This document shows, piece after piece, positions 996-49,932 of a stretch of 64,000 nt of DNA; position 1 is the stretch's first letter; every line of letters begins with the position of its first letter. The notes beneath the pieces are model-generated. The model did not search any database. It worked only from the letters and a program-made list of their open reading frames with translations, and had not been told where the DNA came from. The stretch lies in assembly GCA_044892505.1 (NCBI GenBank), contig CM097882.1, positions 465,310,001 to 465,374,000 on the forward strand, given 5' to 3'. The position numbers and the translations under genes are program-made. This DNA is from Schmidtea nova (lineage: Eukaryota).

Positions 996-2280
996 ATGAG
1001 AACGGATTTGTTACATAAGACAGAGCAGCAAATGATCCAGGAACTGAATATTGGACATGCGAACAGAGAAGAGTTTTCCCCGGGCGTGGTATTAGTCGAA
1101 ATTACAGACTGGAATTTCGTTAAACACGAACACAACCACCTCCAGGATTCTTTAAGAAGTGTGATGCGCCACATGAAATGCACATGTGCCGATTCATTTA
1201 CCACGAACAAGAGATGCTATCAATATACCACTACAATTCCAAGTTACTGGTAACGTAAACCGGCCAGAGCAATTTCTGCTATGGGATTCTGGTCCGGCAA
1301 TTAACGGCGATGAAAGAATTTTGATGTTCGCCACTCAGTCGAATTTGGATTTTCTAACTACTTGTAATGCGATTTTGATGGACGGGACTTTTAAAACAAC
1401 TCCACAGCATTTCCTCCAACTATACGCTATATATGGAACTAGACTGAAGTGTGTTGCTCAAAAGCCTGGGAAGGCAGTTCCTTTAATTTTTTTCTTATTC
1501 CCAAACAAAACCGAGGGAACTTATGATCAGTTTGAGGGAACTTTGATCAGTTAAGTCTACTTCTTCCGGGATGGGCGCCTAACCGTGTCATGCGTGATTT
1601 TTAAATAGCAGCAATCAATGCCTTTCAGACACGATGGCCAAATTTACAGGTGATTTGTTGTTTTTTCGATCTGAATCAAAATATGTGGAAGACGATAAAA
1701 GAACTTGGCTTATGAACTTTTTACGTAACATGTATAGAATGCAACCAAACTCAAAATGATTTCAGCATTGGCCTTCGTTCTACCAGCAGATGGGATCAAC
1801 AGTTGGGATGAGCTTCTATTGATCTTACAACCGTGGATACAGCAACAACCATTAGACATTAAGACACAATTGATGATCTGTTAATGTATTTTGAAGTTAA
1901 TTACATAGGTCAAAATATTGCAGGTGCGAGACGTGCACCCAGAGTTGCTGCAATTGTGATGTGGAATGTCAGAGAACGCGCACTGGAAAATTGTGGCAGA
2001 ACCGACAATGAGATCGAAGGGTTCCACATGAAAGTTGCACAGACAACAAGGGCACAACAACAACTTATGGAAATTCTTCATAGGACTTCAAGGTCTTCAG
2101 GCTGAAACGGAAAATTTAATACAGGAATTAAATGTCGGAGTTGTAGGGAGAAAACAACGACCAGAATACGTTCGACTTTCGGAGAGGATCGCTAATGTTA
2201 CGGCTACATGGCCAAACAGACAAAATTTGGAAACCTTTTTGAACGGAATCAGTCATAACTTTTACTACGGTGGTCACTGA
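996..2280 (+). pseudogene. MULE transposase, frameshifted and with stops
   Basis: HNH motif (FLYWCH-like), ILMDGTFKTTP (first catalytic D), MRDF*IAAINA and ICCFFDLNQ (second D and CxxH region), RTDNEIEGFH (RTNNxxEGWH-like catalytic E), spread over several frames. Confidence 0.85.
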
Positions 2281-2543
2281 AATTTTTTTTCTTCTATAAT
2301 GTTTTTAGTACATTTTTAGACGTTACGTAGTACATTACAACTTCTGTAATACATTTTAACTTTCTTACATTTGCCTTGATTATTAATAATCAATTTTTTT
2401 AAACATTTTTTGTTATTTAAAGTTGTAGTGAAATTTTACAAAGCTCGTAGCATTTATAATTTAGTATACCATTCTACATTTCATTAACAATTGTTTCTTA
2501 AATATGTTGCATATTACGGTTCCAGCATTCTAACGACTTGAGA

Positions 2544-2546
<3 letters not shown>

Positions 2547-2614
<68 letters not shown>
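2547..2614. repeat. (TA)n microsatellite, about 34 units
   Basis: Direct reading of the sequence. Confidence 0.95.
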
Positions 2615-2618
<4 letters not shown>

Positions 2619-3474
2619 AAGTTTTTAATCATTTTAAAGTGATAACAAAAAAAATTCGTGAACCAAAAGTAATGATCCATTTTTGGTCAACCAAATGTCG
2701 TGAACCATTTGTCAGTGGATCTCCTCGAAATATATCTTTTGAGAAATTGATGTTGGGTGGTCTCAAAACTTGTGGATTCGTACGACGAATCTGAATGTCG
2801 TATAAAATTATGGCTGTTTTTAATGTATTTATGGTTTAAGTCGCAATCCTCGTGAGAAAATTGGCATTATTTATTCAGTCTTACACCCCAAAGGGTTCTA
2901 AATTCTCTGTGTGATAAAATATCCTCTCCTTAGGTTTAAAGTATTTTCCTATCTCGTTTATCAATGATCGACTATATCGACAATCTTTCCTATGCGTTAT
3001 TCGTGTGCTACGATTATCGTTGAAAAAAATAAATTGAAATGTTGACGAAAATATTCTCGGTGCAACCACCCCTATCTACTATTATAATCTTATTGAAAAT
3101 TCGTACTTACTCTCACCGCTCTGCATCACTCTCAGAGTCACGAAGGTTGCAGCTTCAACCTCGTGGCTTTCACTATAAATGTTGCATCGATGTTATTTTA
3201 ATTTATGGAACAAAGCATTCTATTCTTCTGGTAAACAATTTAGGAACGTAGGATTAGCATGCATTCATGACTTGCTACCAGGAGATAAATGTGCTGATCT
3301 ACTAGAATAGATGATCTAAAAGAAAATGGTGTGTCGATAAATAATAATATTGTGAGTAAATAGATGTGAGCCCACTTGCCCAAACTCCCTTTCCCCGAAG
3401 CGAGGGCAAGAGACAGATTGTTTATACCTCTCTTTAGATTTTCATTCTAAAAATAGAGTGGAAATCCTTGGTAA

Positions 3475-4185
3475 TGTTGGGCCAACCAAATTGGGCCTGA
3501 AAACAAATAAAGTGTAAATAATAAATATGTAAATGAAATAAATAAAAATGAATTACCATGATCAGAGAGATCTAAAAATAAAATATATTAATAAAGGCAA
3601 GTGTGAATAAAAAGAAACATATATTAACAGTAAATACCTCCGAATTATCATGAGAGCAGGGAAGGTGAGATATCTGAAAATAATTACAATTAAATCACAA
3701 AAAGCATTAATAATAAAAGTGCATAAATTTAATAATTCGTACCTGCAATAACGTATTAAGACCAGGAATGCATAAAGTAAAGAGAAATCAATTAATGGAA
3801 AATAAACAAATTACTTGAAAAGCCAACCCTGCGAATAAGTAAACGAATTTAATAAAATAAATATTTGATAAATATACTTGCTAAACGGAAAGGGAAGCTC
3901 GAGCTCTGAAAATAGAAATATATGAAATGTAAATAAATTGGTAAATTAAATAAATAATGATACATTAGCAAACAAATAGATACTAGCGTTGAAATCAGTT
4001 AAAAACGGTAAGCGGTAATATTCATCTTTTACCAACAATCACTATTGTCAGGTATCATTACACTTGTAGGACTTGTGATTGAATCATTGATTGAATATTG
4101 TGAAATCTATCGTAGAACTCAATAAAAGGTATTTATTGGTTATAATTGTTATGTTTTGATTATATTATTATTCGGTTAACCCCTC
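3475..4185 (+). repeat. LTR-like repeat (TGTTGGGCCAA...AACCCCTCA family)
   Basis: Starts TGTTGGGCCAA as at 43545; A-rich body; AATAAAAGGTA..TTGGTTATA near the end is shared with 44041-44068; ends AACCCCTCA like the other copies. No adjacent PBS seen. Confidence 0.5.
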
Positions 4186-5531: not shown

Positions 5532-6703
5532 TGTTGAGGTTCCAAATATTTGCTATTTGCAATCTCAACTTGTTATTGGGGTGATTCGTATATAAATATC
5601 AAAAACAAAGTTTGTTTCAAAATTTTATTAATACAATAAAATTACTTTTTATTCCGTTTACAATTAATCACTCAAATTCTTTATTACACAATTTTTTTAA
5701 AAGAAAAAGTCGTGTCAAATCAATTCTTGTAATTGAACCTATTGGGTGACTGCTATGTAGTGCGTGCTATATTTTATTTGTGGATCCAATGTTTCTGATC
5801 CGGGTTTTAATAAGTTTTTCAAGATTTCCTTGAAAACTCGATATTGCGCAGATTTTAATTCTTTAGTTTAAAATTCGATTTTTAAAGCTATGAAATTTTT
5901 GGGCCTTTTTTCTGATTTTTCCATCAGCTTATATAGTAAATTTTTTATCTTTTTAACCATCATATAATTATATTTATTAAAATATTTATATTTCAATCGG
6001 TCTTTTTAACCATCATATAATTGTATTTATTAAAATATTTATATTTCAATCGGTATTTTTAACCGGATTTTGTTTATTTTATCTGGCTCAATATCTAGAA
6101 TAATATCTAGAATTTACATCTAGTCGTTTTACAATTTGCCGTTATCTAAAATTATTATTTTTTTATTAAATATATATCTAAAATTTATTATCTACACTTT
6201 GCCCTTTTTAATATATTATTATCTAAAATTATTATTTTTTTATTAAATAAAATTTTATTATCTACAATTTGCCCTTTTTAATATATTATTACTTCACATC
6301 TCATGCACTGTCATATTTTTTATTTATACAGATATATTACCTTATAGATTTTTACACAAATATATATATAAAATTCAAATGATAATATAAGGAATAATTA
6401 TGAAATTCAAGTACAGAATAATTATATACACTTCAAATACAGAATAATGACACTCATATACAAAATTTAAAAGTATATTAAATAATAAAGTTGTGATCAC
6501 ATAAACATAGTCATATAGTGATTATTTGAGGCTTTGTTGGCTTTGATTGAAGAAGGGTGATTTTTTGAGGCGATTGAAGATGGAGTCTGCATTATTTTCG
6601 GACTGGGTTTCTGCATATATATTAACCCTGTATCGATTAGGCCCTGTCCTGTAATATTTGTTCAGGGTAAATGCTTGGATGGGCTTCCCTCGATCATCCA
6701 ACA
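5532..6703 (-). repeat. 3' LTR (1172 bp, carries a 53-bp tandem duplication at 5950-6055)
   Basis: Direct repeat of 17580-18700 with about 5 substitutions, the 53-bp duplication and a 2-bp (TA) length difference. Confidence 0.97.
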
Positions 6704-8513
6704 TTCCTCCCAGGGCCGTCAAAGTAATGTCCTCATTACCTTTTTCGCTCAGGACCATTTCAATTTCTTTATCCTTTAATTTCATTACTGTTCTCTTGAA
6801 TCCTTTCTTGATTGTAAGATTTAGGGTATCATCTTCCTCAATTCGTCTTCCGAAATGGGTACATAATTGTTTTTCCGTTATCTCTTTTTGGTCGGCACCT
6901 ATAATGAAGCTAGGTTCTTCCTCCTCTTCTATTTCCATTTCAATGTCTGGTTCTGGTCCTAATTCGTCTTCTGCTTTTATTTTACTCTCCATTCCTTTTG
7001 TGAAGTCTTCTTCGTCGTCTTCCTCAACTGAAAAATACTCTTCGTCCGAATCTAAATCGCATATGTCTTCTCTTTCTTTGTATTTTTGTATTAGTTGCGG
7101 TTCGTTTTTAATCATTATTTGATTTTCTGGTGGTCCTTCTTCTTTTGTAATCATTAGGTCGTCATCACCATCTTCATGTATTGTTTCTTCCATATCTGAA
7201 TTTTCATCCATTATTATACTTTCTTCTTCGCTTTCCTTCAACTCTTCCATACATGATTTTCTGTTTTGCATCTGGTATAGGTCTCCTTTCATTTCGATAT
7301 CGTCTGTTATTGGTGTATCACTTTGTAACGCTGTTGAAGCTGCTGAATTCCATTTTATTATCGGTTCCCATTTGTCTTCTACTATTCCATATATTACCTT
7401 TAATATTGTTGTTGTCTTTCTGGCAGAAAATGGCTCACTTTCTACTAATGCTTCATTCAGTCTCTTATCTTTGAACCATCTCTTATGGTATTTAATCACT
7501 TGGTAAGCTAAGTTGGATAGCTTAATTTTGAGTGGATCCACGTTTTTCACGAATGAGCACATAAATTTATCTCCGGCCATTTCTCTCATTCCTGCAATGT
7601 TGTCTAGACCAAATGTTAGCATTTTTAATTTATCTATCATATCAAATCCTATGATTATTTTTCCCCACAACAGCTTTCTGATATCCCATAGCGCCTGGTA
7701 CTCATCTTCATTTCCGACGATACTTTCTTTATTAATCATTGTTTTTTCTGTGCAGAAGTTTTTTATCTTCGTTCTTGGGGTTATCTTTTTGTTGTATATC
7801 ATTTCACCGTTGTACTTTCTTATACATACTTCTACTGGTCGCTTGTTGTCATTTTTATCAATTGCAAATTTTGCATCCATGAACATAATTAGTTGGTGTC
7901 TCTCTTCTGTGGATAATTCATTGTGTGTGAAAGAGATTTTTTCATTTATCCAGCTTTGCTCGTACCAAGGTTTTGAAGGGATTGGCGGCATTGATTGGAA
8001 TGGATTTGATATCAGAGGGATATAGAGTATCTCGATTCCTATGACACACGGTAAGTTGTTCATTTGGATTATGAGGTGATTAAAATCGTCTGGCATACTT
8101 CTGTTGTTTGTAATTGTTTTGATGATGATTGAACAATTACTTGTTGTGATTATTGGTACTTTATGTTGGCAAATTGATACCTCGGTTTTTGTCATGTGGA
8201 ATAGGATTCTATGTGGTACCTTTTTTCCTTCGATTACCGCTTTGTCGACATTAAAATGTTTTTCAAATGTGCCGATTAGGTCTTTTAGTTTTGTTCGTCG
8301 AGCTTCATTAAATTTGATAATGTGTAGTTCTCTTTCTTCAATTTCCACTTTCATATCATTTGGGATGCATACTTGGTTTGGGAAGCTTCTGATTGTGATT
8401 GGATTTCCATCGGTACATATTTTGTTTTGTAGGGTTTTGTAAAAGTTTAGAGGGTGTTTGTTGATCATAGCCACATAGTTCATAGATCGAGAATAATTTG
8501 GCTCTGATTGCAT
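6522..8513 (-). CDS. ORF3: unknown N-terminal region, degenerate DEDDh (REX4/ISG20-like) exonuclease domain, acidic tail; ends inside the 3' LTR
   Basis: IMFMDAKF / PVEVCIRKYNGEMIYNKKITPRTKIKNFCTEKTMI / RKLLWGKIIIGFDM / KLSNLAYQVI / FSARKTTTILKVIY follow the spacing of REX4-type motifs. Start taken as MQSEP (8513); the frame is open to 9017. Confidence 0.75.
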   Translation of the reverse strand: MQSEPNYSRSMNYVAMINKHPLNFYKTLQNKICTDGNPITIRSFPNQVCIPNDMKVEIEERELHIIKFNEARRTKLKDLIGTFEKHFNVDKAVIEGKKVPHRILFHMTKTEVSICQHKVPIITTSNCSIIIKTITNNRSMPDDFNHLIIQMNNLPCVIGIEILYIPLISNPFQSMPPIPSKPWYEQSWINEKISFTHNELSTEERHQLIMFMDAKFAIDKNDNKRPVEVCIRKYNGEMIYNKKITPRTKIKNFCTEKTMINKESIVGNEDEYQALWDIRKLLWGKIIIGFDMIDKLKMLTFGLDNIAGMREMAGDKFMCSFVKNVDPLKIKLSNLAYQVIKYHKRWFKDKRLNEALVESEPFSARKTTTILKVIYGIVEDKWEPIIKWNSAASTALQSDTPITDDIEMKGDLYQMQNRKSCMEELKESEEESIIMDENSDMEETIHEDGDDDLMITKEEGPPENQIMIKNEPQLIQKYKEREDICDLDSDEEYFSVEEDDEEDFTKGMESKIKAEDELGPEPDIEMEIEEEEEPSFIIGADQKEITEKQLCTHFGRRIEEDDTLNLTIKKGFKRTVMKLKDKEIEMVLSEKGNEDITLTALGGMLDDRGKPIQAFTLNKYYRTGPNRYRVNIYAETQSENNADSIFNRLKKSPFFNQSQQSLK
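6704..6711 (-). promoter_or_regulatory. Polypurine tract GGGAGGAA
   Basis: Purine run immediately 5' of the 3' LTR on the minus strand; short. Confidence 0.7.
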
Positions 8514-8529
8514 TGTTAATTGAAGACAC

Positions 8530-8669
8530 AAGAATCGGGATATTGATTGATAAGTTAGTAAACAATAAAACACTAAGAATCGGGATATTGATTGATAAGT
8601 TAGCAAACAATAAAACACTAAGAATCGGGATATTGATTGATAAGTTAGTAAACGATAAAACACTAAGAA
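8530..8669. repeat. 45-bp tandem repeat, 3 copies
   Basis: Unit AAGAATCGGGATATTGATTGATAAGTTAGTAAACAATAAAACACT with 1-2 substitutions, just upstream of the ORF3 ATG. Confidence 0.9.
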
Positions 8670-8949
8670 TATAGATTGATAATGAGATCGAGATATGATT
8701 TTACGACTTGATTTGTGATTGGATTGAAAATTGGAACGATTTGATTGGGAGTTGGTTTGATTGTTTTGATTGTGCTGAGGATTTGATGTAAAACTGGCTT
8801 TATTGGGTTGTTTGTCAAATGGGTGACTTGTTTTTCTAAAAATAAAATGTAAATTTTTATGTTGAGAGCGTATTTCAGGTTTAACCTTATACGCTATTTT
8901 ATAGATATAGATATATGTGATTTTAATATATATTATTGACCAATTTAAC

Positions 8950-9975
8950 TTATACCAATGTGGACCTCGAATATTCACCTGGTATATATTTATCCAAATG
9001 GAAATGCCCTGGTACATTTCTGACCAGTTGGCTCCGATACCGCTGCCTTTTCCATTTGTACTTTTTATAAATTTGTACGCTAGTTATTAAAGCTAAAACT
9101 GCTAATGCTATTATTGATGTTGTGATGACATAAAAAGGCCAATGTGGATTTTTATCTTTTTTACGAAATGCTTGTAGTTCCTCTAAGTTATGTATCACTA
9201 TTGGTCTTCCTTGCCTTATTTTGATAGGTTCTTGTTTTTGTTTTTTGGCATTGTATTGTTTTTGGAGTTTGGCTATTCCAGTGCTTGTTGGTATTTCGTT
9301 TGTATGTAGTGTGGTATTTAGTCTATTATTTGATGTCGTTGTGCTTTTTATTTTATCGGGTGTTATGTTTTGGTTTTTTATTATATCCTTGGGTAATTGT
9401 TCTGTTTTTATCTTTTTGCATCTCCATGTTGTTGTATCTGTGTTTCTCTGTATGCAGATTCTATATATTGTATTAGGTGTTAGTTTTGTGAAATTAATAT
9501 AGTTTCCTCTTTCGATTTCGTTGGTTGTTCTGTCGTCCTTTCCTTTTATCATCTTTGGGTTTTTCCCATTCGTTGTTTGCATGTATAAATCAATTACTCC
9601 TCTATTTATGATAAATGCTCTAACTTCGTTTGTTGATATTTTTATTAATACTCTGTCAAATTCTATTGTTTCGGTTGAGCCAACAATTGTTATGATTGTT
9701 AAGAAGATAGCCGATATTATTAGTTTGTTATGAGATCTTAGATTATACTTGTGAGGTTTATCTATCGTGACCTCGGCTTCCGCCAACTTGCATCTGTTGA
9801 CATGTACTACTATTGGATCCTCGTTTTTATGCTTTTGTAAATGTAAATTCTCATTTATTACTTTTACTACTTCATATGGACCTTTATATGGTCTTGCTAA
9901 TTTTGTTGTCTTTCCCTTTCCTACTTGTGGTGACATAAGTCTAACCTTATCACCTACTTTAAAGTTGTGTGGTTT
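8950..9975 (-). CDS. Integrase C-terminus (GPY) fused in frame to signal peptide, FN3-like ectodomain, Thr-rich stalk, TM helix and basic tail
   Basis: FKVGDKV..RPYKGPYEV, YNLRS, hydrophobic LIISAIFLTIITIVGS, YINFTKLTPNTIYRICIQ, TM WPFYVITTSIIALAVLALITSVQIY, KKYKWKRQR, all in one frame. Confidence 0.75.
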   Translation of the reverse strand, partial: KPHNFKVGDKVRLMSPQVGKGKTTKLARPYKGPYEVVKVINENLHLQKHKNEDPIVVHVNRCKLAEAEVTIDKPHKYNLRSHNKLIISAIFLTIITIVGSTETIEFDRVLIKISTNEVRAFIINRGVIDLYMQTTNGKNPKMIKGKDDRTTNEIERGNYINFTKLTPNTIYRICIQRNTDTTTWRCKKIKTEQLPKDIIKNQNITPDKIKSTTTSNNRLNTTLHTNEIPTSTGIAKLQKQYNAKKQKQEPIKIRQGRPIVIHNLEELQAFRKKDKNPHWPFYVITTSIIALAVLALITSVQIYKKYKWKRQRYRSQLVRNVPGHFHLDKYIPGEYSRSTLV

Positions 9976-11040
9976 TTTGTACCTGTATTTTTTCTTGTTG
10001 CACATATTGTACACGCGTTACACCATCTCTTAACATCTTTCTTTAATTCTTCCCAGTAATATTTTTGTAATAATCTACTTGCTGTCTTTCTAGATGATAA
10101 GTGACCTCCTAATGCTCCATCGTGATATTGTAGTAGGAGTATTTGTCTTAATTTCTGAGGTACTACTATTAGTTGCTTACCATTGAAATCTTCTATTACT
10201 ACTAATTTCTTTGATATTTTATACTTTGAATTGTTTTCTTTTCTGATTTCATTTTTTATTTTACTGATCTCTGGGTCTTTCATCTGTTCCTCATATATAT
10301 TGATTGGTTTTTCTGCTACTAGTGCAAATATTTCAAGTGCTCCTAATTCTGGTATTCTTGATAGTGCATCTGCGTTTTTATTTATTCTACCTGGTTTATA
10401 TATAATTTTTAGGTGCATGTCTTGTATTTTCATTGCCCATTTAAGTAATCTACTTGATGTATCTTTATGTTTCCATAAACCTTCTAATGGTTTATGGTCA
10501 GTTCTTATTATCACTTCAGTCCCATATATGTATGGTTTGAATTGTTTTAGGGCGAATACTATTGCGTAACATTCTTTTTCTATTGTTGAATACCTCAGCT
10601 GTGCTCCTTTTAATGTTTTACTGGCATATGCTATTACGTAATCTTTCCCTTTTTCTTCTTCTTGGCCTAAGACTGCTCCTACGGCTTTCCCGCTGGCATC
10701 CGTCATTACTATAAACTGTTTTTCGAAATCTGGGTATCTTAACACGGGTGCTGTTATCAATCTTTCTTTTAGTTTATTGAATGCTTCTTGGTGTTCCTTT
10801 GTCCACTTCTTTTGTATCTTGTTAACTTTGCTGTTAATTTCTTGTACTATTAGCACATTTTTGCATTCTCCTTTTGTTCTAATTCCCTTTGTTAGTTCTA
10901 TTATCGGTGATGCTATCTTTGCATAATCTTGTATGAGTTTACGATAGTACCCTGTTAGACCTAAAAACCCCTGTACTTGTTGTACTGTTTTTGGTATTGG
11001 GAATTTCTTTACCACTTCTATTTTTTCTGGATTTGTTTTA
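9954..11040 (-). pseudogene. pol: Pol segment: RT connection, RNase H, integrase HHCC zinc finger (integrase core deleted)
   Basis: FLGLTGYYRK, VMTDASGKAVGAVL, YSTIEKECYAI, RTDHKPL, NKNADALSR, YHD..GGHLS..KYYW..CNACTIC, then an out-of-frame jump straight to the GPY region. Confidence 0.93.
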
Positions 11041-13741
11041 TCCCTTCTACTGTAACTATATGCCCTAGAAATAACGCCGAAGGTTCTGCCCATTTACACT
11101 TAGTTGGTTTAATTTTAATTTTTGCTTTTCTTAGTCTCTCGAGTACATTTGTTATATCTTTTAAGTGTTCCTCAAATGTTTTTGATGATATTAGTATATC
11201 ATCCATGTAAACTGCGCAATGTTGTACATTTACTAATATTGTATTCATTAGGCGCTGAAATGTAGCTGGTGCGTTAGTTAACCCGAAAGGTAATCGTGTG
11301 TACTCATATAAACCATCCTCGATAACAAATGCTGTTTTTTCCGCATCCCCTTCTTCCATTTGAATTTGCATATATCCCTTATTTGCGTCAATAACTGAAA
11401 AATACTTAGCATCCCTAAGTTTATCGTATTGCTCTTGTGCTTTTGGGAATGGGTATGAGTCTTTTACTGTTACATCATTTAATTTACGATAGTCAATGCA
11501 CATTCTTATTTCTCCGTCTTTCTTTTTAACGGGTACAATGGCTGATGCCCACTGTGAAAAACTCTGTTTTATTACACCTGCATCGTTTAGTTCTTTGATT
11601 TGTCGTTTTATTTCTTCTCTTAACTTGTATGGTACGCTGTATGGTCTTTGTTTTATTGGTCTCGCATTACCTGTATCTATTACATGTTTGATTATATCGG
11701 TATCTCCTAGATCAAATTCGTGTTTTGCAAAAACATCACTATATTTATCTATCAATGTTTGTAGTTGTGCTTGTTGTGTTATTGTTAAGTATTCATTATT
11801 AATTTTTACTTTGTCATATGATTTTATATTATTTATCTTACTAGGTTCGACTACTCCCTTGCCGTTATTATTCATCACGCTTATCTCACTGACTTCGTAT
11901 GTTTTTTCTAATTCACCTTTGAATAATTTTCCCAATTTCGTACCTTTGTGTATTTTATTATTACTTTTTTCATAATTTGCTATTCTCAATGGTATTATTC
12001 CCTTTCTCGGAATTACGCATTCATTGGTTAGCATTATATTCTGATTTTGTATAATTGCCGTTTCTGGCTCAAAAATAAAAGTGTCCTCACTTTTGATGTT
12101 AACTTTTAAGGGAATTATATGATCGCATTCATATTCCAATTCAAATGCTTCTAATGCAACAACTTCTGTGAACTTGGATTTATGTTTAATTGCTTTTCTC
12201 TTTATCATATTATCTGTTAAATCTATAATGCAATTTTCTAACTTGTTGAGTATATCGATTCCCAATATACATATGCTATTACATTCTTGCACCACTTTAA
12301 ATATGTGGTTTATTACCTGTTCTGGTGTTTCGACTATTAGTTCTATGTCTCCCTTTAGTGGAATACGATGTGCTGATAACGATACTACTTTATCCGTTGT
12401 GCTCATAATATTTCTTTTTTGATCATCTGTCAGTTGATCTTCTCTAATTAAGGATGTTGCTGCTCCTGTGTCTACTAATGCATTTATGATTATATTGTTT
12501 ATAATTATTCTAAGTCTTGGTCTTGCTTCGTTTGCTGCATCTAATCGTTCCATTGTTTCGACTTCTAAGCTATAACAACCATATATCTTTTTAGGTTCAC
12601 AATGACAATTCTTGTTTTCTCTAGGAATTTTGATTTCTATATTTTCTTGTAGCTCTTTTAGTTGTTCTCTTTGGTTTTCATATAGTCCTTGTTGTGGTAC
12701 ATTTCCTTCATGTGATATATGCGCTTTAATTATTTCCTCATCGTTTTCATCATCTACCAGTAATTGCCTTTCTTCACTCCTTTGGACTTTTATTAAACGT
12801 ATTTCCTTGTCGTGTTTCGCCGTAATAAGATATTTAGCTATAAATGGGCACAAACATGCTAATAATTTATATGAATTTCCAAATACTTGTTTTAGCTGTC
12901 TTAGTGATACTAGAGAAGAACATATCATTTTTAGTAATGCAACCGTATAATATATACCTAAGATCGTAGAAAACATGTTTCCAATGACTGCAAAGTATCC
13001 CCATATGCTATATAGTACTTTATATGCTACTTTTTTGAAGTATTCTTTTGATAATAACACATCAAAGTTGTAATTTCCTCCGTAACTTCCTTCGATAACT
13101 CTGTTAACCATTATTGAAAGTACTCTTTCTTTTTCGTTTGGAAATAGCACGTGTTTTCTTGCACTTTCTATAGCTTCTCTCGTATATATGCCATTACTGT
13201 CCATATCGTTGATTTCTTTAAACTCTAATCTTTTTTCTAGCTCTATGAGTTCTAATTTGAGTGGTTTCATTGCCTCCTTTCTATCTGACATAGATATCCA
13301 CATTTCGTCATTTATTTTGTATAATGGGTCTAATAGGTTAGTGCATTTTTCTATTTTTCTCGGTATATATGTTTTTTCTGTTAATATTCTAGTAATTAGT
13401 TGAAGGTATACCCTTTCTCCTTTATATATTACCGGTAATTCATTAGTGCACTGATTATTTGTTGCTAACGATACACTAACAGGTTTACATTGAAATGTCT
13501 GTATCACTTCTCCTACTATCCTTGCAAATGTTCCTTCTTCTGAGAAGATTATTGGTGCCATTAAATCTGGGTTTGTTACCGCCACTGCCATTTTTGTCCT
13601 CAATATTTCTCTGTTGAGTTTGCAATCGCTCATAATTGTTGATTGATATACTTTATCTAATTGTACTAGTTGGTTATGATAGAAAAAATCGATTTTATTG
13701 TTGAAGTATGATGCAAGTTTGACGTCGAATTTATTTACTTT
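11018..13741 (-). CDS. pol: Polyprotein segment: glycoprotein C-half with TM, aspartic protease, reverse transcriptase
   Basis: GEVIQTFQCKPV..CTNELPVIY..TRIL..NGIYT..FPNE..IWGYFAVIG (glycoprotein), ALVDTGAA and CILGIDIL (protease), RMCIDYRKLN, LPFGLTNAPATFQR, YMDDILI (RT). A 1-nt loss in an A-run near 11036-11040 shifts the frame. Confidence 0.93.
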   Translation of the reverse strand, partial: KVNKFDVKLASYFNNKIDFFYHNQLVQLDKVYQSTIMSDCKLNREILRTKMAVAVTNPDLMAPIIFSEEGTFARIVGEVIQTFQCKPVSVSLATNNQCTNELPVIYKGERVYLQLITRILTEKTYIPRKIEKCTNLLDPLYKINDEMWISMSDRKEAMKPLKLELIELEKRLEFKEINDMDSNGIYTREAIESARKHVLFPNEKERVLSIMVNRVIEGSYGGNYNFDVLLSKEYFKKVAYKVLYSIWGYFAVIGNMFSTILGIYYTVALLKMICSSLVSLRQLKQVFGNSYKLLACLCPFIAKYLITAKHDKEIRLIKVQRSEERQLLVDDENDEEIIKAHISHEGNVPQQGLYENQREQLKELQENIEIKIPRENKNCHCEPKKIYGCYSLEVETMERLDAANEARPRLRIIINNIIINALVDTGAATSLIREDQLTDDQKRNIMSTTDKVVSLSAHRIPLKGDIELIVETPEQVINHIFKVVQECNSICILGIDILNKLENCIIDLTDNMIKRKAIKHKSKFTEVVALEAFELEYECDHIIPLKVNIKSEDTFIFEPETAIIQNQNIMLTNECVIPRKGIIPLRIANYEKSNNKIHKGTKLGKLFKGELEKTYEVSEISVMNNNGKGVVEPSKINNIKSYDKVKINNEYLTITQQAQLQTLIDKYSDVFAKHEFDLGDTDIIKHVIDTGNARPIKQRPYSVPYKLREEIKRQIKELNDAGVIKQSFSQWASAIVPVKKKDGEIRMCIDYRKLNDVTVKDSYPFPKAQEQYDKLRDAKYFSVIDANKGYMQIQMEEGDAEKTAFVIEDGLYEYTRLPFGLTNAPATFQRLMNTILVNVQHCAVYMDDILISSKTFEEHLKDITNVLERLRKAKIKIKPTKCKWAEPSALFLGHIVTVEGIKQIQKK

Positions 13742-15367
13742 TTATTTTGCATCTTTGACTTCTTCTTTGCTTATGTATATCCCTTCATAATTAGTTTGTA
13801 TTATTTCCTTACCACATTTTACACTTTTCCTTTTACTAACAAACCTCATTGCTTCGTTTTCAGATTCTGACATATATATTGTTGGTGTATCTTTTTCTTG
13901 TACAATTGTTGTTTTCCTTTCTTGATCTCTCACCCTTTTTGAGTCTACTTCTGTGAACTGTTTTCCTTTGATTTCCCTAAATTTTAATGATTTTAATTTT
14001 GTTAATTGGCAATCATATTTATCTATTTTGTATATTAGCATTGATTCTCCTGTATCGCAATAAGATTCTTCTAATGTACAAAATTTGTATATCATCATTT
14101 TCTTTGAGCTGCTGTCGAATGATGCTTTGAACTTTCTCAGTTCTACCATGTAGTGTCTCCTTACTACAATATTACTCAGTTTTTCGCCCCATATTGTATA
14201 TTCTCCTCCTTCACAATATCCTCCTTTTGATGTCCATCCCACGACATTTACATCTTGTCTCATTTTTGCCCCTATCCTTGCTTCTAATTCTATTCCTTTA
14301 TGACCGCTATATTTTACTTTCTTTGTTTTAAATGCATCTTCACACTCTATTGGTGACAATATTACTGCTTCGGGTGTCCACGTAGGTTTTAACACTGTTC
14401 TTGCCCCAACATGACATATATATGCTTCCTCCTGATACTTTACTATGCACTCTTTGGCCTCTGTATGAATAAAGTCTGATTCTTGATAAACATGGAATAT
14501 TTGAGGCTCTGACATGATTAATTTAGTTGGATTTGCTTCAGGGCAATTTTCAACATCTAACAGTGAGTATTTTTGTCCCCACTTTGGATTTTGACAATCA
14601 TATGCTACCATTGCATTGCCTCCCTTGATTAAATCTAATAACAAAGTGATAATGACTATTACTATGGAGGTTATCGATTTACTCTCTGTCTTTGGTTTTA
14701 CTGTTGCTTTCTTTATTAATTGTTTTATTACCTCATCTGTATCACTCTCTTTATTCGTCGTATCTTTATCATATAATAGTTTCCATCCTCCTTTCTTTTT
14801 TATCCATGGTATTGCCTCTACTTTCAATCTTTTAAACATCATTGTTGCTACTTTTTCTAATTGCTCTTTTGGATTTTCCTTTATGAGCTTTTTATATCTT
14901 GCGGCCAAGTATGCCATGGCCGTTATTATTTTATCTTTATCTATCCCTGTATTAAACATGATTTTTAACACTGTTTTTTCATTTGCTTCCTCTGTAGCTA
15001 GTTCTTTAGTATCCTTTTTAATTAACATCATCCTTTCAGTTATATTTTCAATAAGTACTGTTGGCTTTGTTTCTGGAAATAGCTTAATATTCATTGCTTT
15101 TATTACTTCTTTTATTTTGTTTACGTCATTATTATCGTCTTGATACTCTGGTTGTTCATGTTTATGTTGATTTGCAATCTCTCTTAATCGTTCTGCTGTC
15201 TTCCTATTCTCCGATTTTTCTATTATTTCTGATTTTCGAGGTCTTCCTCTACCTCGTTTTGATGTTTCTGCATCTTTTGTTCTTGCTTCCTCAGCTATTC
15301 TTTCTATTGTTTCTTGTAAGTTACTATACTTTTCATCTATAGGTTTAAATATAATTTCTTCATCCAT
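13742..15367 (-). CDS. Polyprotein N-part: AT-hook, Bcl-2-like domain, signal anchor, glycoprotein N-half (premature TAA at 13742-13744; same frame continues)
   Basis: KRGRGRPRK; AERLREIANQ; MFNTGIDKDKIITAM; PWIKKKGGWKLL; SIVIVIITLLLDLI; AYDC..YSLLDVENC..YCEGG..YCDTGESMLIY. The 108 nt between the TAA and the next ORF are open and in frame. Confidence 0.85.
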   Translation of the reverse strand: MDEEIIFKPIDEKYSNLQETIERIAEEARTKDAETSKRGRGRPRKSEIIEKSENRKTAERLREIANQHKHEQPEYQDDNNDVNKIKEVIKAMNIKLFPETKPTVLIENITERMMLIKKDTKELATEEANEKTVLKIMFNTGIDKDKIITAMAYLAARYKKLIKENPKEQLEKVATMMFKRLKVEAIPWIKKKGGWKLLYDKDTTNKESDTDEVIKQLIKKATVKPKTESKSITSIVIVIITLLLDLIKGGNAMVAYDCQNPKWGQKYSLLDVENCPEANPTKLIMSEPQIFHVYQESDFIHTEAKECIVKYQEEAYICHVGARTVLKPTWTPEAVILSPIECEDAFKTKKVKYSGHKGIELEARIGAKMRQDVNVVGWTSKGGYCEGGEYTIWGEKLSNIVVRRHYMVELRKFKASFDSSSKKMMIYKFCTLEESYCDTGESMLIYKIDKYDCQLTKLKSLKFREIKGKQFTEVDSKRVRDQERKTTIVQEKDTPTIYMSESENEAMRFVSKRKSVKCGKEIIQTNYEGIYISKEEVKDAK

Positions 15368-17340
15368 TACTGATTTCTTTGTTTCGCTAGGTGATTTATA
15401 CTCAACTCAACCGACGGTACTGGCGTCATTATTTCATTGATCATTTGTTTTTCTACTGTGGCTACCACAATATTATCACTTACTGGGTTTATCCCATAAT
15501 CGATTAAGTACTCGTCACTTAATAATTCTATTCCGTTAAAATATAATTTTATTACATCCTTCTCTCCTATGGTTCCTGGCCATTTGGCTCTTACCATTCG
15601 TTTTAATTTGCTCACTTTAGTGCAAGGATGCATCTTTTGTTTAATACTAAAAAAATAATTATCATTTGATTCAATCGTTACATTTAGTGTTTCATGAAAT
15701 TTTTCATTTTTTCTTATATATTCTCCATAACATTTCAGTATCTCTTTTATTTCTATTTCTAATTCAAATACTCTCGTTACATTTTGTCTCTTTACCATCA
15801 TTGGTATTAAATTTCTAAGTCTCTCTAAATCAATCCCATTAACCTGTATTTTATTGATTACTCTTAATGTTTCATTGTCATCAAACGGTTGCTTATGCAA
15901 TACCTCTTTAAATTCCTCTATTAATTCTTTTTGTCTATTTTCTTCTGTAAGAAATATTTCATCTGCTTTTCTAATTTCCTTTAACTCATCATTATCAATA
16001 TCTACTTCATTTGTAAAGGTGCTAAATTCATTTATAGACATTTCAAGTTTTCTCTCAATAAGTCTTCCATATTGAGTTTTAAATTCTTTTAGTTCCTCTC
16101 TTAATATATTTATTTCTTTATTTGCTGATTCGAGCTCAGCACTATTTACTTGTTTTATCTCAGGCTCATTTTTAAATCTTACTCTTATTGGTGAATCTGC
16201 TCGTGGTTTATTACATACCTTTGCTAGGTGGCCATACTTTTGGCAATTATAACATTTTATTTGTCCATTAAAATTCACTTTATCTCTACCATCATTATTA
16301 TAAGTATTTCGCCTCACTGGGCTATCTTGTCTATTTCTCGAATTATCTCTATATCTATTATCTCTTCTATTATATTCGAAGCGACTATCTCTATTATTTT
16401 TATTATATCCACTGTAACTGTTTCTGTTATAACCAGAACGACTATCTCTAAAATTATCTCTGTTGTCTCTATCATTATCTCTATCAAAACGATTGTCTCT
16501 AAAACTGTCTCTATTATTGTTTCTTTGATAACTATCTTTAAAATTATTTCTATTTCTATTATCGAAATTTTTATTTCCTGGACTATTAAACCTTCCCCTG
16601 TTTTCAGGTGATTGGCTTCTATTAGGACTAAATTTTCTTCTATTATTAACAAATTTCAAGTATAATTGTTTCATTTCTTCCCAGGGAATACTATCATCCT
16701 TATTTCTCAACTCAGGTTTTACCTCGGGTTGTTTTTCAACTTCTACAGCATCTACCTCTGGTTTAAATCTATCTCTTTGTATTGCTTCGATACGTTTTGC
16801 CTTTTGAACTAACTCATTTAAGTCTTCATACTCAATTGTAATTAATGCTTTGTATAAATATTTTTGGATTCCGTTCCAAAACTGATCCTCGATTAACCTA
16901 CTAGTGTGATCTCCTGCACCAAATGCCTTTTTTGCTAATTCTGTTATCGTGTATATATATTCACCTACTGATTCTCTTGCTCCTTGGTATCTACTTCTAA
17001 ATTTTTGAACATTTATTTTTTGTAAGTCTCTATCTATTACTATTTCTTTTCTAAGGTTTGTAACTAACTCTTGATAATTAATGCCTTTACATGCTAAATT
17101 ATTGTATGCTTGTAATGCGTATCCTTTTAAATATAATGGAATTCGTTGTTTTAATTCATTTGTTTTCCATCCGCAAGCCTCTGCATATTGTGCGATTTCG
17201 GCAAAAAAGTCGTCGAACTTTTCAGGGTCTCCTTTATATGATTCTATTGGTAGTGTTTTTATAAAATTATGATTACTGTTGATGTTGTCTGTATTGCTGT
17301 TACTTCCACTATTATTGCTGCCTGTACTATTATTACTCAT
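15367..17340 (-). CDS. gag: Gag (capsid, RS/RD-rich linker, CCHC knuckle, coiled coil, C-terminal ubiquitin-like domain)
   Basis: YKGDP..FF..YAEACGW..LYLKGYALQAY, Q..RESVGEY..L..KAF, CYNCQKYGHLAKVC, then LYFNGIELLSDEYLIDYGI. Confidence 0.92.
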   Translation of the reverse strand: MSNNSTGSNNSGSNSNTDNINSNHNFIKTLPIESYKGDPEKFDDFFAEIAQYAEACGWKTNELKQRIPLYLKGYALQAYNNLACKGINYQELVTNLRKEIVIDRDLQKINVQKFRSRYQGARESVGEYIYTITELAKKAFGAGDHTSRLIEDQFWNGIQKYLYKALITIEYEDLNELVQKAKRIEAIQRDRFKPEVDAVEVEKQPEVKPELRNKDDSIPWEEMKQLYLKFVNNRRKFSPNRSQSPENRGRFNSPGNKNFDNRNRNNFKDSYQRNNNRDSFRDNRFDRDNDRDNRDNFRDSRSGYNRNSYSGYNKNNRDSRFEYNRRDNRYRDNSRNRQDSPVRRNTYNNDGRDKVNFNGQIKCYNCQKYGHLAKVCNKPRADSPIRVRFKNEPEIKQVNSAELESANKEINILREELKEFKTQYGRLIERKLEMSINEFSTFTNEVDIDNDELKEIRKADEIFLTEENRQKELIEEFKEVLHKQPFDDNETLRVINKIQVNGIDLERLRNLIPMMVKRQNVTRVFELEIEIKEILKCYGEYIRKNEKFHETLNVTIESNDNYFFSIKQKMHPCTKVSKLKRMVRAKWPGTIGEKDVIKLYFNGIELLSDEYLIDYGINPVSDNIVVATVEKQMINEIMTPVPSVELSINHLAKQRNQ

Positions 17341-17559
17341 TTTGTATATTACCTTATTTCTTAACTTGTGTAATATTTCAGGTTGCTTATCTATAATAAC
17401 TTTCTTTATCTTTTTACCTATTTTGTTATTGTTAACCTTATATGTTTGTATATTTTTGAATTTCTGTTTTGGTCAATAATATTTATATAAATATATTTTC
17501 CCAATATATATTACAATATCCCTCTGATCGCAATTCCTATCCCCCAATTGATTTTATTG

Positions 17560-17577
17560 TCCCGGTTCGCGGCACCA
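17560..17577 (-). promoter_or_regulatory. Primer binding site TGGTGCCGCGAACCGGGA, probably tRNA-Phe
   Basis: Lies 2 nt inside the 5' LTR and starts TGG; the complement ends CGGCACCA as in metazoan tRNA-Phe(GAA) 3' ends. Confidence 0.8.
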
Positions 17578-17579
17578 AA

Positions 17580-18700
17580 TGTTGAGGTTCCAAATATTTG
17601 CTATTTGCAATCTCAACTTGTTATTGGGGTGATTCGTATATAAATATCAAAAACAAAGTTTGTTTCAAAATTTTATTAATACAATAAAATTACTTTTTAT
17701 TCCGTTTACAATTAATCACTCAAATTCTTTATTACACAATTTTTTTAAAAGAAAAAGTCGTGTCAAATCAATTCTTGTAATTGAACCTATTGGGTGACTG
17801 CTATGTAGTGCGTGCTATATTTTATTTGTGGATCCAATGTTTCTGATCCGAGTTTTAATAAGTTTTTCAAGATTTCCTTGAAAACTCGATATTGCGCAGA
17901 TTTTAATTCTTTAGTTTAAAATTCGATTTTTAAAGCTATGAAATTTTTGGGCCTTTTTTCTGATTTTTCCATCAGCTTATATAGTAAATTTTTTATCTTT
18001 TTAACCATCATATAATTATATTTATTAAAATATTTATATTTCAATCGGTCTTTTTAACCGGATTTTGTTTATTTTATCTGGCTCAATATCTAGAATAATA
18101 TCTAGAATTTACATCTAGTCGTTTTACAATTTGCCGTTATCTAAAATTATTATTTTTTTATTAAATATATATCTAAAATTTATTATCTACACTTTGCCCT
18201 TTTTAATATATTATTATCTAAAATTATTATTTTTTTATTAAATAAAATTTTATTATCTACAATTTGCCCTTTTTAATATATTATTACTTCACATTTCATG
18301 CACTGTCATATTTTTTATTTATACAGATATATTACCTTATAGATTTTTACACAAATATATATATATAAAATTCAAATGATAATATACGGAATAATTATGA
18401 AATTCAAGTACAGAATAATTATATACACTTCAAATACAGAATAATGACACTCATATACACAATTTAAAAGTATATTAAATAATAAAGTTGTGATCACATA
18501 AACATAGTCATATAGTGATTATTTGAGGCTTTGTTGGCTTTGATTGAAGAAGGGTGATTATTTGAGGCGATTGAAGATGGAGTCTGCATTATTTTCGGAC
18601 TGGGTTTCTGCATATATATTAACCCTGTATCGATTAGGCCCTGTCCTGTAATATTTGTTCAGGGTAAATGCTTGGATGGGCTTCCCTCGATCATCCAACA
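17580..18700 (-). repeat. 5' LTR (1121 bp)
   Basis: Near-identical to 5532-6703; a TATATAA and several AATAAA are present on the minus strand. Confidence 0.97.
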
Positions 18701-19000: not shown

Positions 19001-19876
19001 TTAAATTTCAATATCCGGTGGACAAAAATCAGCAATAAAGCGAAGAATCTGGTCAAACGGTTCATCTTCGCCCCTGTTTCGTCGCCACATGAATTCCTCC
19101 ATATATGATTCCAGAAAAATACGCTTGGTGCCGCTCTGCCTTTTGTTTCGCCACTTCACAGTACGCCACATCCTTTCAGCATTTTGTGTGTGAGCACCGG
19201 TGTCCGGATCGACGAAATTGTAGCGGTGATTGACGCGCTGATGAGTAAAGCCAGTATCCTGCAGTCCGTTGTAAGCACGCCATGAATCGGTTATGATCGT
19301 AGAATTTTGGTGAACATGTTCGGCGATGATCGGCAAGAGAGTGGCGACACTTCGATCAATAACTCGGACAAGGAACACCTGTTTGGTTTCACGACAAATC
19401 CCTCCGAGCATCCATTGCTGTGGCAAAACACGACCCGCATGATTCTTCCGCTTGCTGAACAGGCTTTCATCGATTTCCACGACCATTCCTTCGCCTCCGA
19501 TTATCTGATGCTCTTGTTGAAGGCACCAAGAGCACACTTCGCGCATGAATTTGCAGTATTTGACCGTCGTCTCTCCGTCCATTTCCAGTTGACGTTCGCA
19601 GAATTTGATAGATGCCCATTCCTCAGCCCAGGCGTAGATGAATCGGATGATTGTTTCATAAGGTAGTCGGAGGCCTTCGGTCCAGTTTCCAACTCTCATT
19701 CTCACAGTTCGGTGACACGAGGCTCGATTGCACTTCCAATGGACTTGTTTTCCAAAATATAGCTTCATTTGATGTCCTTTGGCACGCACACGCATGGCCG
19801 GCAGAATCCCACGCTCTTGCAGAAATAGGACACTCTCTTCCTCTCCGTTGGGCAATTCGTGATATTTGAGAACCAT
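19001..19876 (-). CDS. Merlin (IS1595/ISXO2-like) DDE transposase, intact ORF
   Basis: VVEIDESLFSKRK, WMLGGICRET, STIITDSWRAY, HQRVNHRYNFVDPDTGAHTQNAERMW, SYMEEFMWR. A 15-bp inverted repeat lies at 18958-18972 / 20068-20082; true termini not established. Confidence 0.93.
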   Translation of the reverse strand: MVLKYHELPNGEEESVLFLQERGILPAMRVRAKGHQMKLYFGKQVHWKCNRASCHRTVRMRVGNWTEGLRLPYETIIRFIYAWAEEWASIKFCERQLEMDGETTVKYCKFMREVCSWCLQQEHQIIGGEGMVVEIDESLFSKRKNHAGRVLPQQWMLGGICRETKQVFLVRVIDRSVATLLPIIAEHVHQNSTIITDSWRAYNGLQDTGFTHQRVNHRYNFVDPDTGAHTQNAERMWRTVKWRNKRQSGTKRIFLESYMEEFMWRRNRGEDEPFDQILRFIADFCPPDIEI

Positions 19877-21123
19877 GAAAGGCTAAAGTAATGAAAAAAT
19901 AATGAGTATTTCTTGTTAAAATGTTAAAATAAAAAAATGAGAAAAATCATTTAAATATATTTTATTGATCAAAATCATTTAAATATTTTATGAAAAAATA
20001 ATGAGTATTTCTTGTTAAAATGTTAAAATAAAAAAATGAGAAAAATAAGATTTATGCAGAAAATAAAAAAAATGCGATCAGTATTTTATTTTTAGAAAGT
20101 TAGTATTTGGTAGTATGTGATGAGAACTGTAGAGCCCAGAAGATTATCCTATTAAAATCTGTCTTGGGACAGCTGGGGTGGGTGCACTGTACGTACCGCT
20201 GTTTGAGTGTGTGCTTGTGTATGTTAGTAAATGTTTTAATAAAATAAACTAACAAAATACAAAATCTTTCAACGAAACTATTTTAAGAACAAAAATTCAA
20301 AGTTACTCACGTAAAAAACGAATAGCCTGTAATTTCAATTTAGGGGAACTTGTTTCAGATTTACTTCTTCCTTTCAGTTAATTTCTTTCTATAGGGTAAT
20401 TTTCTTTTATCTTCTGTTCTTGATTGTTTATGAATTTTCCTAGGCAATTTTTCTGGTTTTATTTAGTTTTGGTTCCTTCGATTTTATTTTCATCTCGGCA
20501 ATTTATTTTGGTTTTCTTAATTTTCGTTAAACAATCTCTTTTGCACTTAGTAATTTTTTTATTTTTAAAATCCAATTTTTTTCTCTCGTAATTTATTTGT
20601 AATTTATAATCCATTTTTTTCTTTTATAGTTATTTCTAATTTTCAATGACAATTGATTTTTGTTTTGAATTTGAATTTTTTAAAATTTCCTTTTCTTTAA
20701 ATTAATTGTTTATTCATGGCTATTTGCCAAATGAACAAAATGACAGAATCAATAAAAAGGGGGGTCATCCTGTGTCCGCAAGGACGCCCACGACAATAAT
20801 CACACAATACAACATTAACAACAATAATCATAAAAATGCTGTATTAACACGGTGTATTTGATGATAGTGTGCCCTGGAACCTCGCTGGGCAACTCGAAAA
20901 AATAACTGGGATAGTCCTCAAGGTATTGGACATCTACATCGATTGGCCACTCTTGTTTTCCGTGCTAAACGATGTCATCGGGGCTGTCCCGAAATAGGCT
21001 AAAACTAGGCATTTCCCCTGTCTCGGCGAATCGTTCCTGATGTTCAGCTAGGATCTATCTTGCCAGATCTGTAGGAATCTGCTTGAAGTTGCCGTAGTCT
21101 AATATCGGCTTGTAATAATTTGT

Positions 21124-48424: not shown

Positions 48425-49932
48425 TGGGTCAAGTGAGAAAAATGGCTTTTACTTCGCAAGTCAATTTGGACGCAGAATGAGCTCACGCAACAAAATCATT
48501 AGTTTTGTCATTTTGTTCGCAATAAACATAAAATTTCTTTGTGTATCCTTTACTTGATTTTTAAATTTTATTTATTTATGTTTTTGTTGGCTGCTGAAAT
48601 CTTGTGCTTTATTTTTGTATATTATTAAAAATTTCGTTGAATTTTGTTAAAATTATTTTTATCTTTTTTTATATTACTTGAATTATGAATCTCACTTTAT
48701 TTATATGCTATTTTAGTAGTATTTTAATGAGTAAGAAAAATGATTTCGAAATTCTCTTAAATAATTGCACGAATATCAGATTAAGTTGATTTATGAAGGT
48801 TCAATAAAAAAGTAAAATAAAGGAAATGATCTATACACGAATCGCGAAGGTTAAAATGTAAAAAGAGACCGAATACTGAATAGAGTGCACATCTTCTATT
48901 GATAACTCGTGAACCCAGAGAGTATTCAAATAATGATACTTTTGGAAACAACGCTCACTTTTTGCGAGTATTTTCACCCATTAGTTGTTGGCAACGGGTA
49001 ACTATTTGGAAATTCAGCCATTATATGTTCACCAAAAATTATCATCCTACTATCGTACCAACACAGCAATCAATACTTCTGAACAAGTGAAAGAATCAAT
49101 AGTAAAAGCATATATAATAAATTTCTGCCATAACCCTCGTTTACTTCTTAGCATCATGATTCTACTAATACATTTGTGAGGTGTTTTTGTAATTTATTTT
49201 AAAGTATAATGGTATGATGCTGTGTATGTTTAATAGTATGTTGAAATCATTACTTTACTTACATTAATTATTATTTTTAGAAATTTCTCAAACAAATTAA
49301 CGATATAATTTGTTTAAATATTATTTTCATTAAATAAACATGCTAATTACAAATTTTATGGATTCAATAAATACCCGAAGCTCTATGGCTTATGTGGCGA
49401 CCATGATTACAAATCTTATCAAGTCACCGGAAACATGTGACATTGATTAGGACGTGGAAGATTTAATCTTAGACACGAAACGATTCTTTGAAATGGCAAA
49501 TATTGTCGATGAATACCGACGAAAATTGGACAAAGCTTTTCTCTCAATCAATGCAACGAAGAAATATGACTTGGAAAATGGAACTCTGCATTATACAGAA
49601 AGGTTAAGGAATGATTTTGCTAAGAACAGAAGTCTCATAGACGATCTCAACAAAGCTCTAAATCATGGGTTCTCATAGTGTGTCGCGGAAATTGTTTGGT
49701 GTCGCTAAATTTTTTAAAAATTTTATTGATATTTGATGTTGGATGTAAAGTTATTAGTTGATAAACAATAAATAGATAAATACAATGAATAGATAAAAAC
49801 TTTAAGATCTAGATGCAGAAATACGTGTTAGTCTTCCTAAAATAAGACCATGTTTCGAAAGCTTGTACTCAAAATATATCAACAATAAATCTCTTTGATT
49901 TAAAATTTTATTAATTGTTAGAATATAATTAA

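Follow-up and report, generated by a model that had tools for sequence, protein, structure and literature searches.

A predicted ISG20-type nuclease fold with an altered catalytic site in the third gene of an envelope-bearing Ty3/Gypsy element of Schmidtea nova

The third gene (ORF3) of a Ty3/Gypsy element located on the minus strand of a 64-kb stretch of the Schmidtea nova genome (termed the window in the following) encodes a protein with a predicted ISG20-type nuclease fold in which four of the five catalytic residues are gone. As judged from sequence comparisons among the genomic copies, ORF3 is under purifying selection across four old types, and the gene product is very probably a functional protein devoid of catalysis. 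Moreover, ORF3 and its LTR are inherited together as a cassette on a common gag-env-pol backbone.

The four types were recognized by a genome search for ORF3 in which 150 of 2053 candidates were scored. The resulting copies fall into the main types A to D, with the window copy belonging to type A. The types share 60-66% identity in the nuclease domain, where comparisons between types (one pair per type) yielded dN values of 0.25-0.29 and pS values of 0.78-0.81. When both folded domains were considered (one copy per type), synonymous sites were saturated with pS values of 0.73-0.81, at dN values of 0.18-0.29.

Organization of the element and extent of ORF3

The LTR retroelement carrying ORF3 is young and shows the gene order gag, env, pol and ORF3, all on the minus strand. 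The features expected of a Ty3/Gypsy element, i.e. LTRs, a PBS-like site, a PPT-like tract and a target duplication, are all present. The 5' LTR (17580..18700), delimited by comparison with the 3' LTR (5532..6703), differs from the latter by 7 mismatches and 3 gaps, and both flanks of the element carry the 4-bp target duplication TCCG. A putative PBS-like sequence (17560..17577) is common to types A, B and D, and a short purine tract resembling a PPT (6704..6711) is located within ORF3, directly 5' of the start of the 3' LTR. The context of this tract is the same in types A, B and C, with pyrimidines occurring in type D.

The Pfam matches follow the order gag, fusion glycoprotein, protease, reverse transcriptase, RNase H and integrase that defines the GAG-ENV-POL type. 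The gag gene (15367..17472) specifies a zinc knuckle and, at the C-terminus of the deduced protein, a weak ubiquitin/SUMO-like match (E 0.01). The adjacent region (11018..15406) contains, according to Pfam, a Bcl-2-like region (E 1e-6, under the Pfam cut-off), a Monjiviricetes-type fusion glycoprotein, a protease and a reverse transcriptase, and is followed by a region (8950..11093) encoding RNase H, an integrase zinc finger, the integrase SH3 end and a membrane-anchored tail. The window copy is defective at three sites, as the fusion glycoprotein gene is broken by a stop at 13742-13744, the frame changes near the border of reverse transcriptase and RNase H (around 11020-11090) and the integrase core is missing.

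ORF3 occupies positions 6522..8513 on the minus strand and comprises 663 codons from an ATG at 8513 to a stop at 6522, in agreement with an earlier note that had been made from the sequence of the window. The same frame is present in types A to D. Additionally, about 190 codons upstream of 8513 that had been missing from this note stay open in the ORF3 frame and reach into pol (8514..9083), the end of which they overlap in the +1 frame. Of 49 copies, 48 keep this frame in register between the pol tail and the first domain and 41 have no stop in it, whereas the remaining frames are open in none of them; shuffled upstream segments kept the frame open in 0.05-3% of the trials each. The extension varies between 462 and 837 nt among the copies, is low in complexity and revealed no membrane helix (best 19-mer hydropathy 1.5).

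The earlier note had proposed expression from a subgenomic RNA, and the open upstream frame offers several candidates for the start of ORF3. Translation may begin at an in-frame ATG at 9017 that was found in types A to D, after splicing at a splice-acceptor-like T-rich motif ending with AG (8836..8847) that lies in the same phase to ORF3 in all types, or by a +1 frameshift from pol. With respect to the latter, the heptamer AAA-AGG-C, which we take to resemble the +1 frameshift site of Ty1, is retained in the pol tail region in all five types compared. Contigs from four sequencing runs of unrecorded kind contained no intron-like joint except a 42-nt skip, which equals the length of a local repeat unit, and a search for integrated spliced copies revealed an unbroken acceptor region in all 40 hits scored of 249 candidates. 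A stretch of 14 nt (8930..8943) is perfectly complementary to leader positions 17469-17482. For the whole region, the leader pairing energy surpassed that of shuffled sequences in part only (0 to 52 of 200).

Domains of the ORF3 protein and the origin of the altered nuclease site

The earlier note had assigned a DEDDh exonuclease fold to ORF3 by motif order, and both profile searches and structure prediction bear out an ISG20/REX4-type fold at positions 7356..7892. When the ORF3 protein was used alone, a Pfam search gave no usable family and phmmer detected weak matches to ISG20L2 (E 0.006) and ISG20 (E 0.06). A family profile of 65 rows matched ISG20L2 at 5e-32, ISG20 at 1e-19 and SDN1 at 7e-17. 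An RNase_T match was obtained with 32 of the 65 family rows and none with the window protein alone, and the nuclease part was assigned to RNase_T clusters of the ESM Atlas at 0.94. The structure of residues 23-396 was modelled on the family alignment with a pLDDT of 93 and a pTM of 0.90. The nearest folds to this model are ISG20, PAN2 and SDN1; ISG20 was aligned at Z 18.2 with an rmsd of 2.4 A over 160 residues (next row Z 14.5; Foldseek E 5e-8). A first structure model from seven close rows had been set aside at a pLDDT of 37.6.

The motifs DAK, GFDMIDK and SARKT lie where the earlier note had placed them, but its reading of the last one against SxEDA was one place off, as the catalytic Asp aligns to T367 and the His to F362. 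Instead of the canonical D-E-D-H-D set, the five catalytic positions D213, K215, K295, F362 and T367 read D-K-K-F-T in 56 of 58 copies; the other two loci comprise one that is cut short and one with a single change. Since these copies belong to four types with only 60-66% identity, the altered site is not the result of copy decay. The Asp beside the second lysine is retained in types A to D and is replaced by Asn or Ser in two outside relatives. A basic insert of 13 residues precedes the last nuclease motif, and the net charge of the domain ranges from +3 to +8 in the types versus +4 in the intact sister family described below. The RNA-binding residues M186/R226/W229 of ISG20L2 are not kept in ORF3, and by-eye reading of the alignments indicated that the intact sister lacks their equivalents as well. 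In ISG20L2 itself, each single mutation of the five catalytic residues abolishes activity (PMC10899777). The earlier note had named two outcomes that would speak against a pseudo-nuclease accessory gene, namely the absence of a DEDD fold and the presence of the catalytic residues in intact copies. Neither was observed, as the fold is confidently predicted and the substitutions are fixed under purifying selection in four types, and the proposal of such a gene is thereby supported.

The nuclease fold is preceded by a second folded domain (8016..8447; model residues 1-144), which is absent from the earlier note. It is predicted to be a double-stranded beta-helix of the cupin/2OG-oxygenase-like kind, with the cupin and AlkB/2OG branches tied: the model matched cupins at Z 10.5 over 97 residues (1yhf) and prolyl hydroxylases at Z 10.2 over 135 residues (2jij). 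No HxD or HxH metal motif was detected in this domain, where a single His (92%) and a Glu at some distance from it (83%) are the only conserved residues of this kind, and a comparison with the ESM Atlas gave no usable match.

Downstream of the nuclease fold, an acidic linker (6879..7349; residues 389-545) contains 55 D/E among 157 residues, shows 39-49% identity between the types and received low pLDDT values in the model from seven close rows. It is followed by a conserved C-terminal domain (6612..6893; about residues 541-634) that extends across the PPT into U3, covering its first ~95 nt, and for which no solved structural relative was found. Accordingly, the long D/E-rich tail described previously holds for the linker and not for the tail as a whole. 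The 3' LTR starts at 6703 within the Met codon of Leu-Gly-Gly-Met, after the purine run GGGAGGAA. The coding of this tetrapeptide by the PPT applies to the window copy, with the Leu being replaced by Arg or Gln in other types. Similarly, the statement that about 60 codons lie in the 3' LTR is right by position, but only about the first 31 of these codons are kept. In a set of 21 5' LTRs, the stretch of U3 read in the ORF3 frame measures between 32 and 67 codons, and in the element's own 5' LTR it ends after 46 codons. To judge from the substitution pattern within types, the first ~30 U3 codons are under selection (pS 0.29-0.55 and pN 0.04-0.08 in eight non-independent pairs with at least six differences), and no conservation is apparent beyond about codon 31. 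Accessory genes reading through the PPT into U3 are represented among retroviruses by nef, MMTV sag and foamy virus bel, to which the likeness of ORF3 is one of position only.

A Pfam search of the same genome revealed a sister GAG-ENV-POL family, here named family E, with the same two-domain gene. The catalytic positions of this family read D-E-E-H-D; 28 of 30 loci were fetched, and all five residues were visible by eye in 27 of these. In the one copy that was resolved, a conventional PPT follows about 2.4 kb after the end of the family E gene, and the overlap of ORF3 with the LTR therefore looks special to the lineage of types A to D. A homology between the C-terminal domain of ORF3 and the C-terminus of family E, by which the LTR border would have moved into an old gene, was considered and found to be unsupported (probability 0.1%, shallow alignments).

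Further relatives were collected by a protein-library search, of which 62 of the 150 listed matches were kept. The other 88 matched unrelated tails of two profile rows and were dropped, so the family is under-sampled by this search; word-index searches returned only 2 and 4 proteins. Among the 49 library relatives covering all five catalytic positions, 31 are intact (D-E-[D/E]-H-D) and carry a His in the last motif, and 18 are altered, with the lineages other than types A to D having different residues, not lysines, at the catalytic positions. One outside relative with genomic context is preceded by an ORF encoding a protease and a membrane helix. A tree of 44 rows calculated without the catalytic columns needs five changes, at least two of which are forced by strong branches, and a single origin of all dead forms was rejected on these grounds. 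When the catalytic columns were retained, 21 altered rows were grouped with a support of 91/89. Family E, the intact relatives and the tree without catalytic columns together indicate that the gene goes back to a family of retroelements whose site was intact and that catalysis was lost more than once.

Linkage of ORF3 types and LTR types on a shared backbone

The upstream 9.9 kb were taken for 38 copies picked by ORF3 type, and a backbone matching the reference segments was present in 35 of them. Irrespective of the ORF3 type, the segments between gag and RNase H share 85-100% identity with those of the window. In type B copies, for instance, the backbone is 95-100% identical to the window and the ORF3 protein 64%. 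Likewise, dS values of 0.015-0.49 in env and pol stand against saturation in ORF3. The LTRs consist of a coding part of 100 nt, a variable middle part, which has been replaced even among copies of one type, and a type-specific last part of ~410 nt. The ORF3 type corresponds to the promoter/R type of the LTR in all 34 LTRs with definable borders (from 30 elements; four are the references themselves). Saturation in ORF3, the similarity of the backbones and the pairing of the LTR types thus indicate that old cassettes of ORF3 and LTR ride one recombining backbone. Exchange inside the LTR does occur, since the U3 middle of two type A copies is also present in a type B LTR. Plain linkage alone could be the source of the pairing of ORF3 and LTR, and we infer that the two may in addition be functionally matched. 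The complete pairing would somewhat favour an action on the RNA or promoter of the element itself over a role as general decoy.

Possible roles of ORF3 and comparison with known systems

The reading that we prefer, tentatively and with slightly less than even confidence, is that ORF3 may encode an RNA-binding protein without cutting activity that regulates its own element and is matched to the accompanying LTR. The two lysines at the former metal-ligand positions would grip the RNA backbone without metal, and the protein would attach to an RNA end or an R/U5 structure and leave it untrimmed. Host factors serving transcription, export or protection of the genomic RNA would be brought in by the acidic linker together with the cupin and C-terminal domains, a role modelled on Rev-, Tas- or CERV-like factors, and the overlap with the PPT and U3 would physically tie the ORF3 gene to its LTR. 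Several observations count against a regulator: the pairing may be plain linkage, as crossover finds scant homology between diverged cassettes and the two ends of the RNA need matching R sequences; the nuclease domain is overall no more basic than that of the intact sister; the ISG20L2 residues M186/R226/W229 are not kept; and the family E gene lies far from its LTR in the one copy available. Because other dead lineages carry other residues at the respective positions, the lysines are not a general solution.

It is rather unlikely, though well within consideration, that ORF3 is instead a counter-defence factor that protects small RNAs or the ends of the element's RNA against silencing or host exonucleases, or that mimics a host protein of the REX4/SDN1/PAN2 type to sequester its partners. 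The cassettes would then have diversified to evade silencing directed at the LTR, and their linkage would be incidental. The identity of the nearest folds is in line with such a role, as are the further host-like domains of the element (the Bcl-2-like and ubiquitin-like matches), the loss of catalysis on at least two occasions in the family and the precedent of Maelstrom-type proteins, whereas selection is purifying and not diversifying at the level measured and the complete pairing with the promoter type is not itself predicted. An improbable alternative is a role as structural protein or constituent of the particle, with ORF3 being produced as a Pol extension by +1 frameshifting or by splicing and acting in particle assembly, RNA packaging or strand transfer instead of gene regulation. 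The frame that is open and in register from within the pol tail, the conserved heptamer and the leader complement at the cassette border would fit this assumption, but the ATG at 9017 in types A to D accounts for the open frame without a frameshift, and the extension is variable in length and low in complexity.

The near invariance of D213 and both lysines across types with saturated synonymous sites, along with the Asp adjoining the second lysine in types A to D, could also point to a still active nuclease with a site rebuilt on lysines. This is quite improbable, as the adjoining Asp is not kept in the two outside relatives, and the site has lost its general-base His along with three metal ligands, any single one of these losses being sufficient to kill ISG20L2 (PMC10899777). 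The defects of the window copy elsewhere might finally suggest a decayed passenger gene without function, which is highly improbable and already contradicted by the selection signal: the same residues are present in 56 of 58 copies, dN is far under dS, length changes keep the frame and U3 codons appear to be under selection.

Extending the regulator reading to the whole family is speculative and on balance unlikely. Types A to D would represent ancient cassettes of regulator and promoter on one backbone, with each dead nuclease recognizing the RNA or promoter of its own LTR only, i.e. a private Tat-TAR- or Tas-like pair made from an RNA-processing enzyme and locked by the PPT/U3 overlap. The wider cupin-DEDDh family would comprise undescribed accessory genes of envelope-bearing retroelements that changed from enzyme to regulator several times.

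The closest known arrangement is provided by the LTR retrotransposons Juno and Vesta of bdelloid rotifers, Ty3/Gypsy elements that likewise encode a DnaQ-like exonuclease as third ORF, the function of which is given as untested (PMC5408684). The rotifer protein is an RNase D-like DEDDy enzyme with intact DEED residues that replaces env, whereas the window ORF3 is of the ISG20/REX4 type DEDDh, joined to a cupin domain, altered in its site, located beside env and overlapping the LTR. A DEDDy enzyme of the rotifer type is also not indicated by the intact relatives, which have the His, or by the best folds, which are DEDDh. A passage of PMC6338049 cites only the rotifer case. Nematodes, bryozoans and flatworms are reported to harbour GAG-ENV-POL errantiviruses that have a gB-type envelope, the same gene order and a class III-type fusion gene (PMC13524379); a term search of the available text and seven supplements of this source found no mention of an exonuclease or accessory 3' ORF.

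Human ISG20 and ISG20L2 (1wlj, 7yw5) are the best profile and fold matches, compared to which ORF3 keeps one of the five catalytic residues and adds the basic insert and the cupin, acidic and C-terminal domains. Functional analogues are seen in CERV and Maelstrom. CERV, encoded by the Ty3/Gypsy element Cer1 of C. elegans, likewise is an accessory protein containing a pseudo-enzyme domain, exports genomic RNA and is needed for the element's own RNA, but its fold is that of a pseudo-GTPase and it arises by splicing from the gag region, and no homology to ORF3 is expected (PMC10309623). A DEDD fold without catalysis is shared with Maelstrom, which binds single-stranded RNA (PMC4408791), and with Exuperantia (5l80), to which the ORF3 model was aligned at Z 10.5. 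These are, however, host proteins of another DEDD branch, and the ECHC zinc motif is absent from ORF3 by inspection. No description of a cupin-DEDDh accessory family was found in the literature searched (Repbase, most subscription papers and PMID 35550022 lying outside it), and new findings of the present analysis are the cupin fusion, the intact-site sister family and the cassette exchange.

The accessory genes of envelope-bearing retroelements of invertebrates are almost uncharacterized. In the genome of S. nova, family E with its preserved site and the dead version maintained by selection form a natural pair, by which the step from enzyme to regulator becomes comparable. Moreover, ancient modules of ORF3 and LTR on a young backbone imply that families defined by LTRs and families defined by pol can disagree completely, and the pattern raises the question of what keeps several cassettes alive. 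If the pairing of ORF3 and LTR is functional, it would represent a regulatory circuit in the style of complex retroviruses outside the vertebrate retroviruses.

Cassette border and upstream region of ORF3

The ORF3+LTR cassette of the minus-strand GAG-ENV-POL element is bordered on its upstream side by a short sequence with a counterpart in the leader. A stretch of 14 nt at positions 17469-17482 of the leader is perfectly complementary to positions 8930-8943, located directly past the pol stop codon, and this complementarity is mostly conserved in the other cassette types. The 14-nt complement marks the cassette border, and it is reminiscent of the cyclisation pairing of Ty1. Upstream of the ORF3 start codon, a tandem repeat with a unit of approximately 45 nt was detected at positions 8523-8700, each unit of which comprises a TACTAAC-like word and a pyrimidine-AG. 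The number of units differs between copies, and these differences do not interrupt the ORF3 reading frame.

Related elements and exchange of cassettes

The sister family E, likewise of GAG-ENV-POL type (L059-L088; for instance L093/L094), was represented by 28 of the 30 fetched loci and displays 37-43% identity in pol. Its cupin-DEDDh ORF, with an intact catalytic motif, ends about 2.4 kb ahead of the 3' LTR in the one copy that was resolved. A relative with an intact motif was also identified on the metagenome contig L142 (positions 3-1682 and 1937-3550), downstream of an ORF encoding a retroviral-type protease, a Thr-rich stalk and a membrane helix. Contig L142 represents a similar layout in a different organism. 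The two closest outside relatives, P0001 and P0002, both share the residues D-K-K-F-T and are represented by gene models with a fusion to unrelated host proteins; these fusions are likely to be mis-predicted gene models at insertion sites.

A comparison of LTR sequences revealed that the type A 3' LTRs of loci L047 and L048 have the middle part of U3 in common with the type B 5' LTR of L111 (84-86%), despite U3 starts that remain specific to the own type. Moreover, L139 carries a decayed fifth cassette type, and in L140 a type C cassette is located behind an unrelated pol.

Other features of the window

An ORF for an ISXO2-like DDE transposase (19001-19882, minus strand; PF12762, E = 3.5e-18) is located shortly beyond the outer end of the 5' LTR. 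An open frame of 562 codons (21103-22791, plus strand) gave no match in a Pfam search. Two further repeats were noted in the window, namely a 436-nt tandem duplication (59493-60371; 99.5%) and, at 49919-50167, an inverted repeat of 85 nt whose arms are separated by 79 nt.

Possible additional domains in Gag, Env and Pol

Within the env ORF, the N-terminal portion (14660-15406, minus strand) matched Bcl-2 (PF00452, E = 1e-6) with 29.7 bits, slightly below the Pfam cut-off of 31.4, and also contains an AT-hook-like motif. A retroelement with a Bcl-2-like domain would be unusual. A weak ubiquitin/SUMO-like match was detected at the end of Gag (15370-15900, minus strand; E = 0.01) as well as in Gag of family E (E = 0.02). 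Beyond the end of the integrase SH3 domain, Pol is extended (8950-9720, minus strand) by a hydrophobic stretch and a region with a likeness to fibronectin-III. The likeness was judged by eye, and a Pfam search yielded no match for this region. The extension continues with a Thr-rich stalk and a membrane helix and ends in a basic tail. The Pol tail possibly represents a second surface protein of the element.
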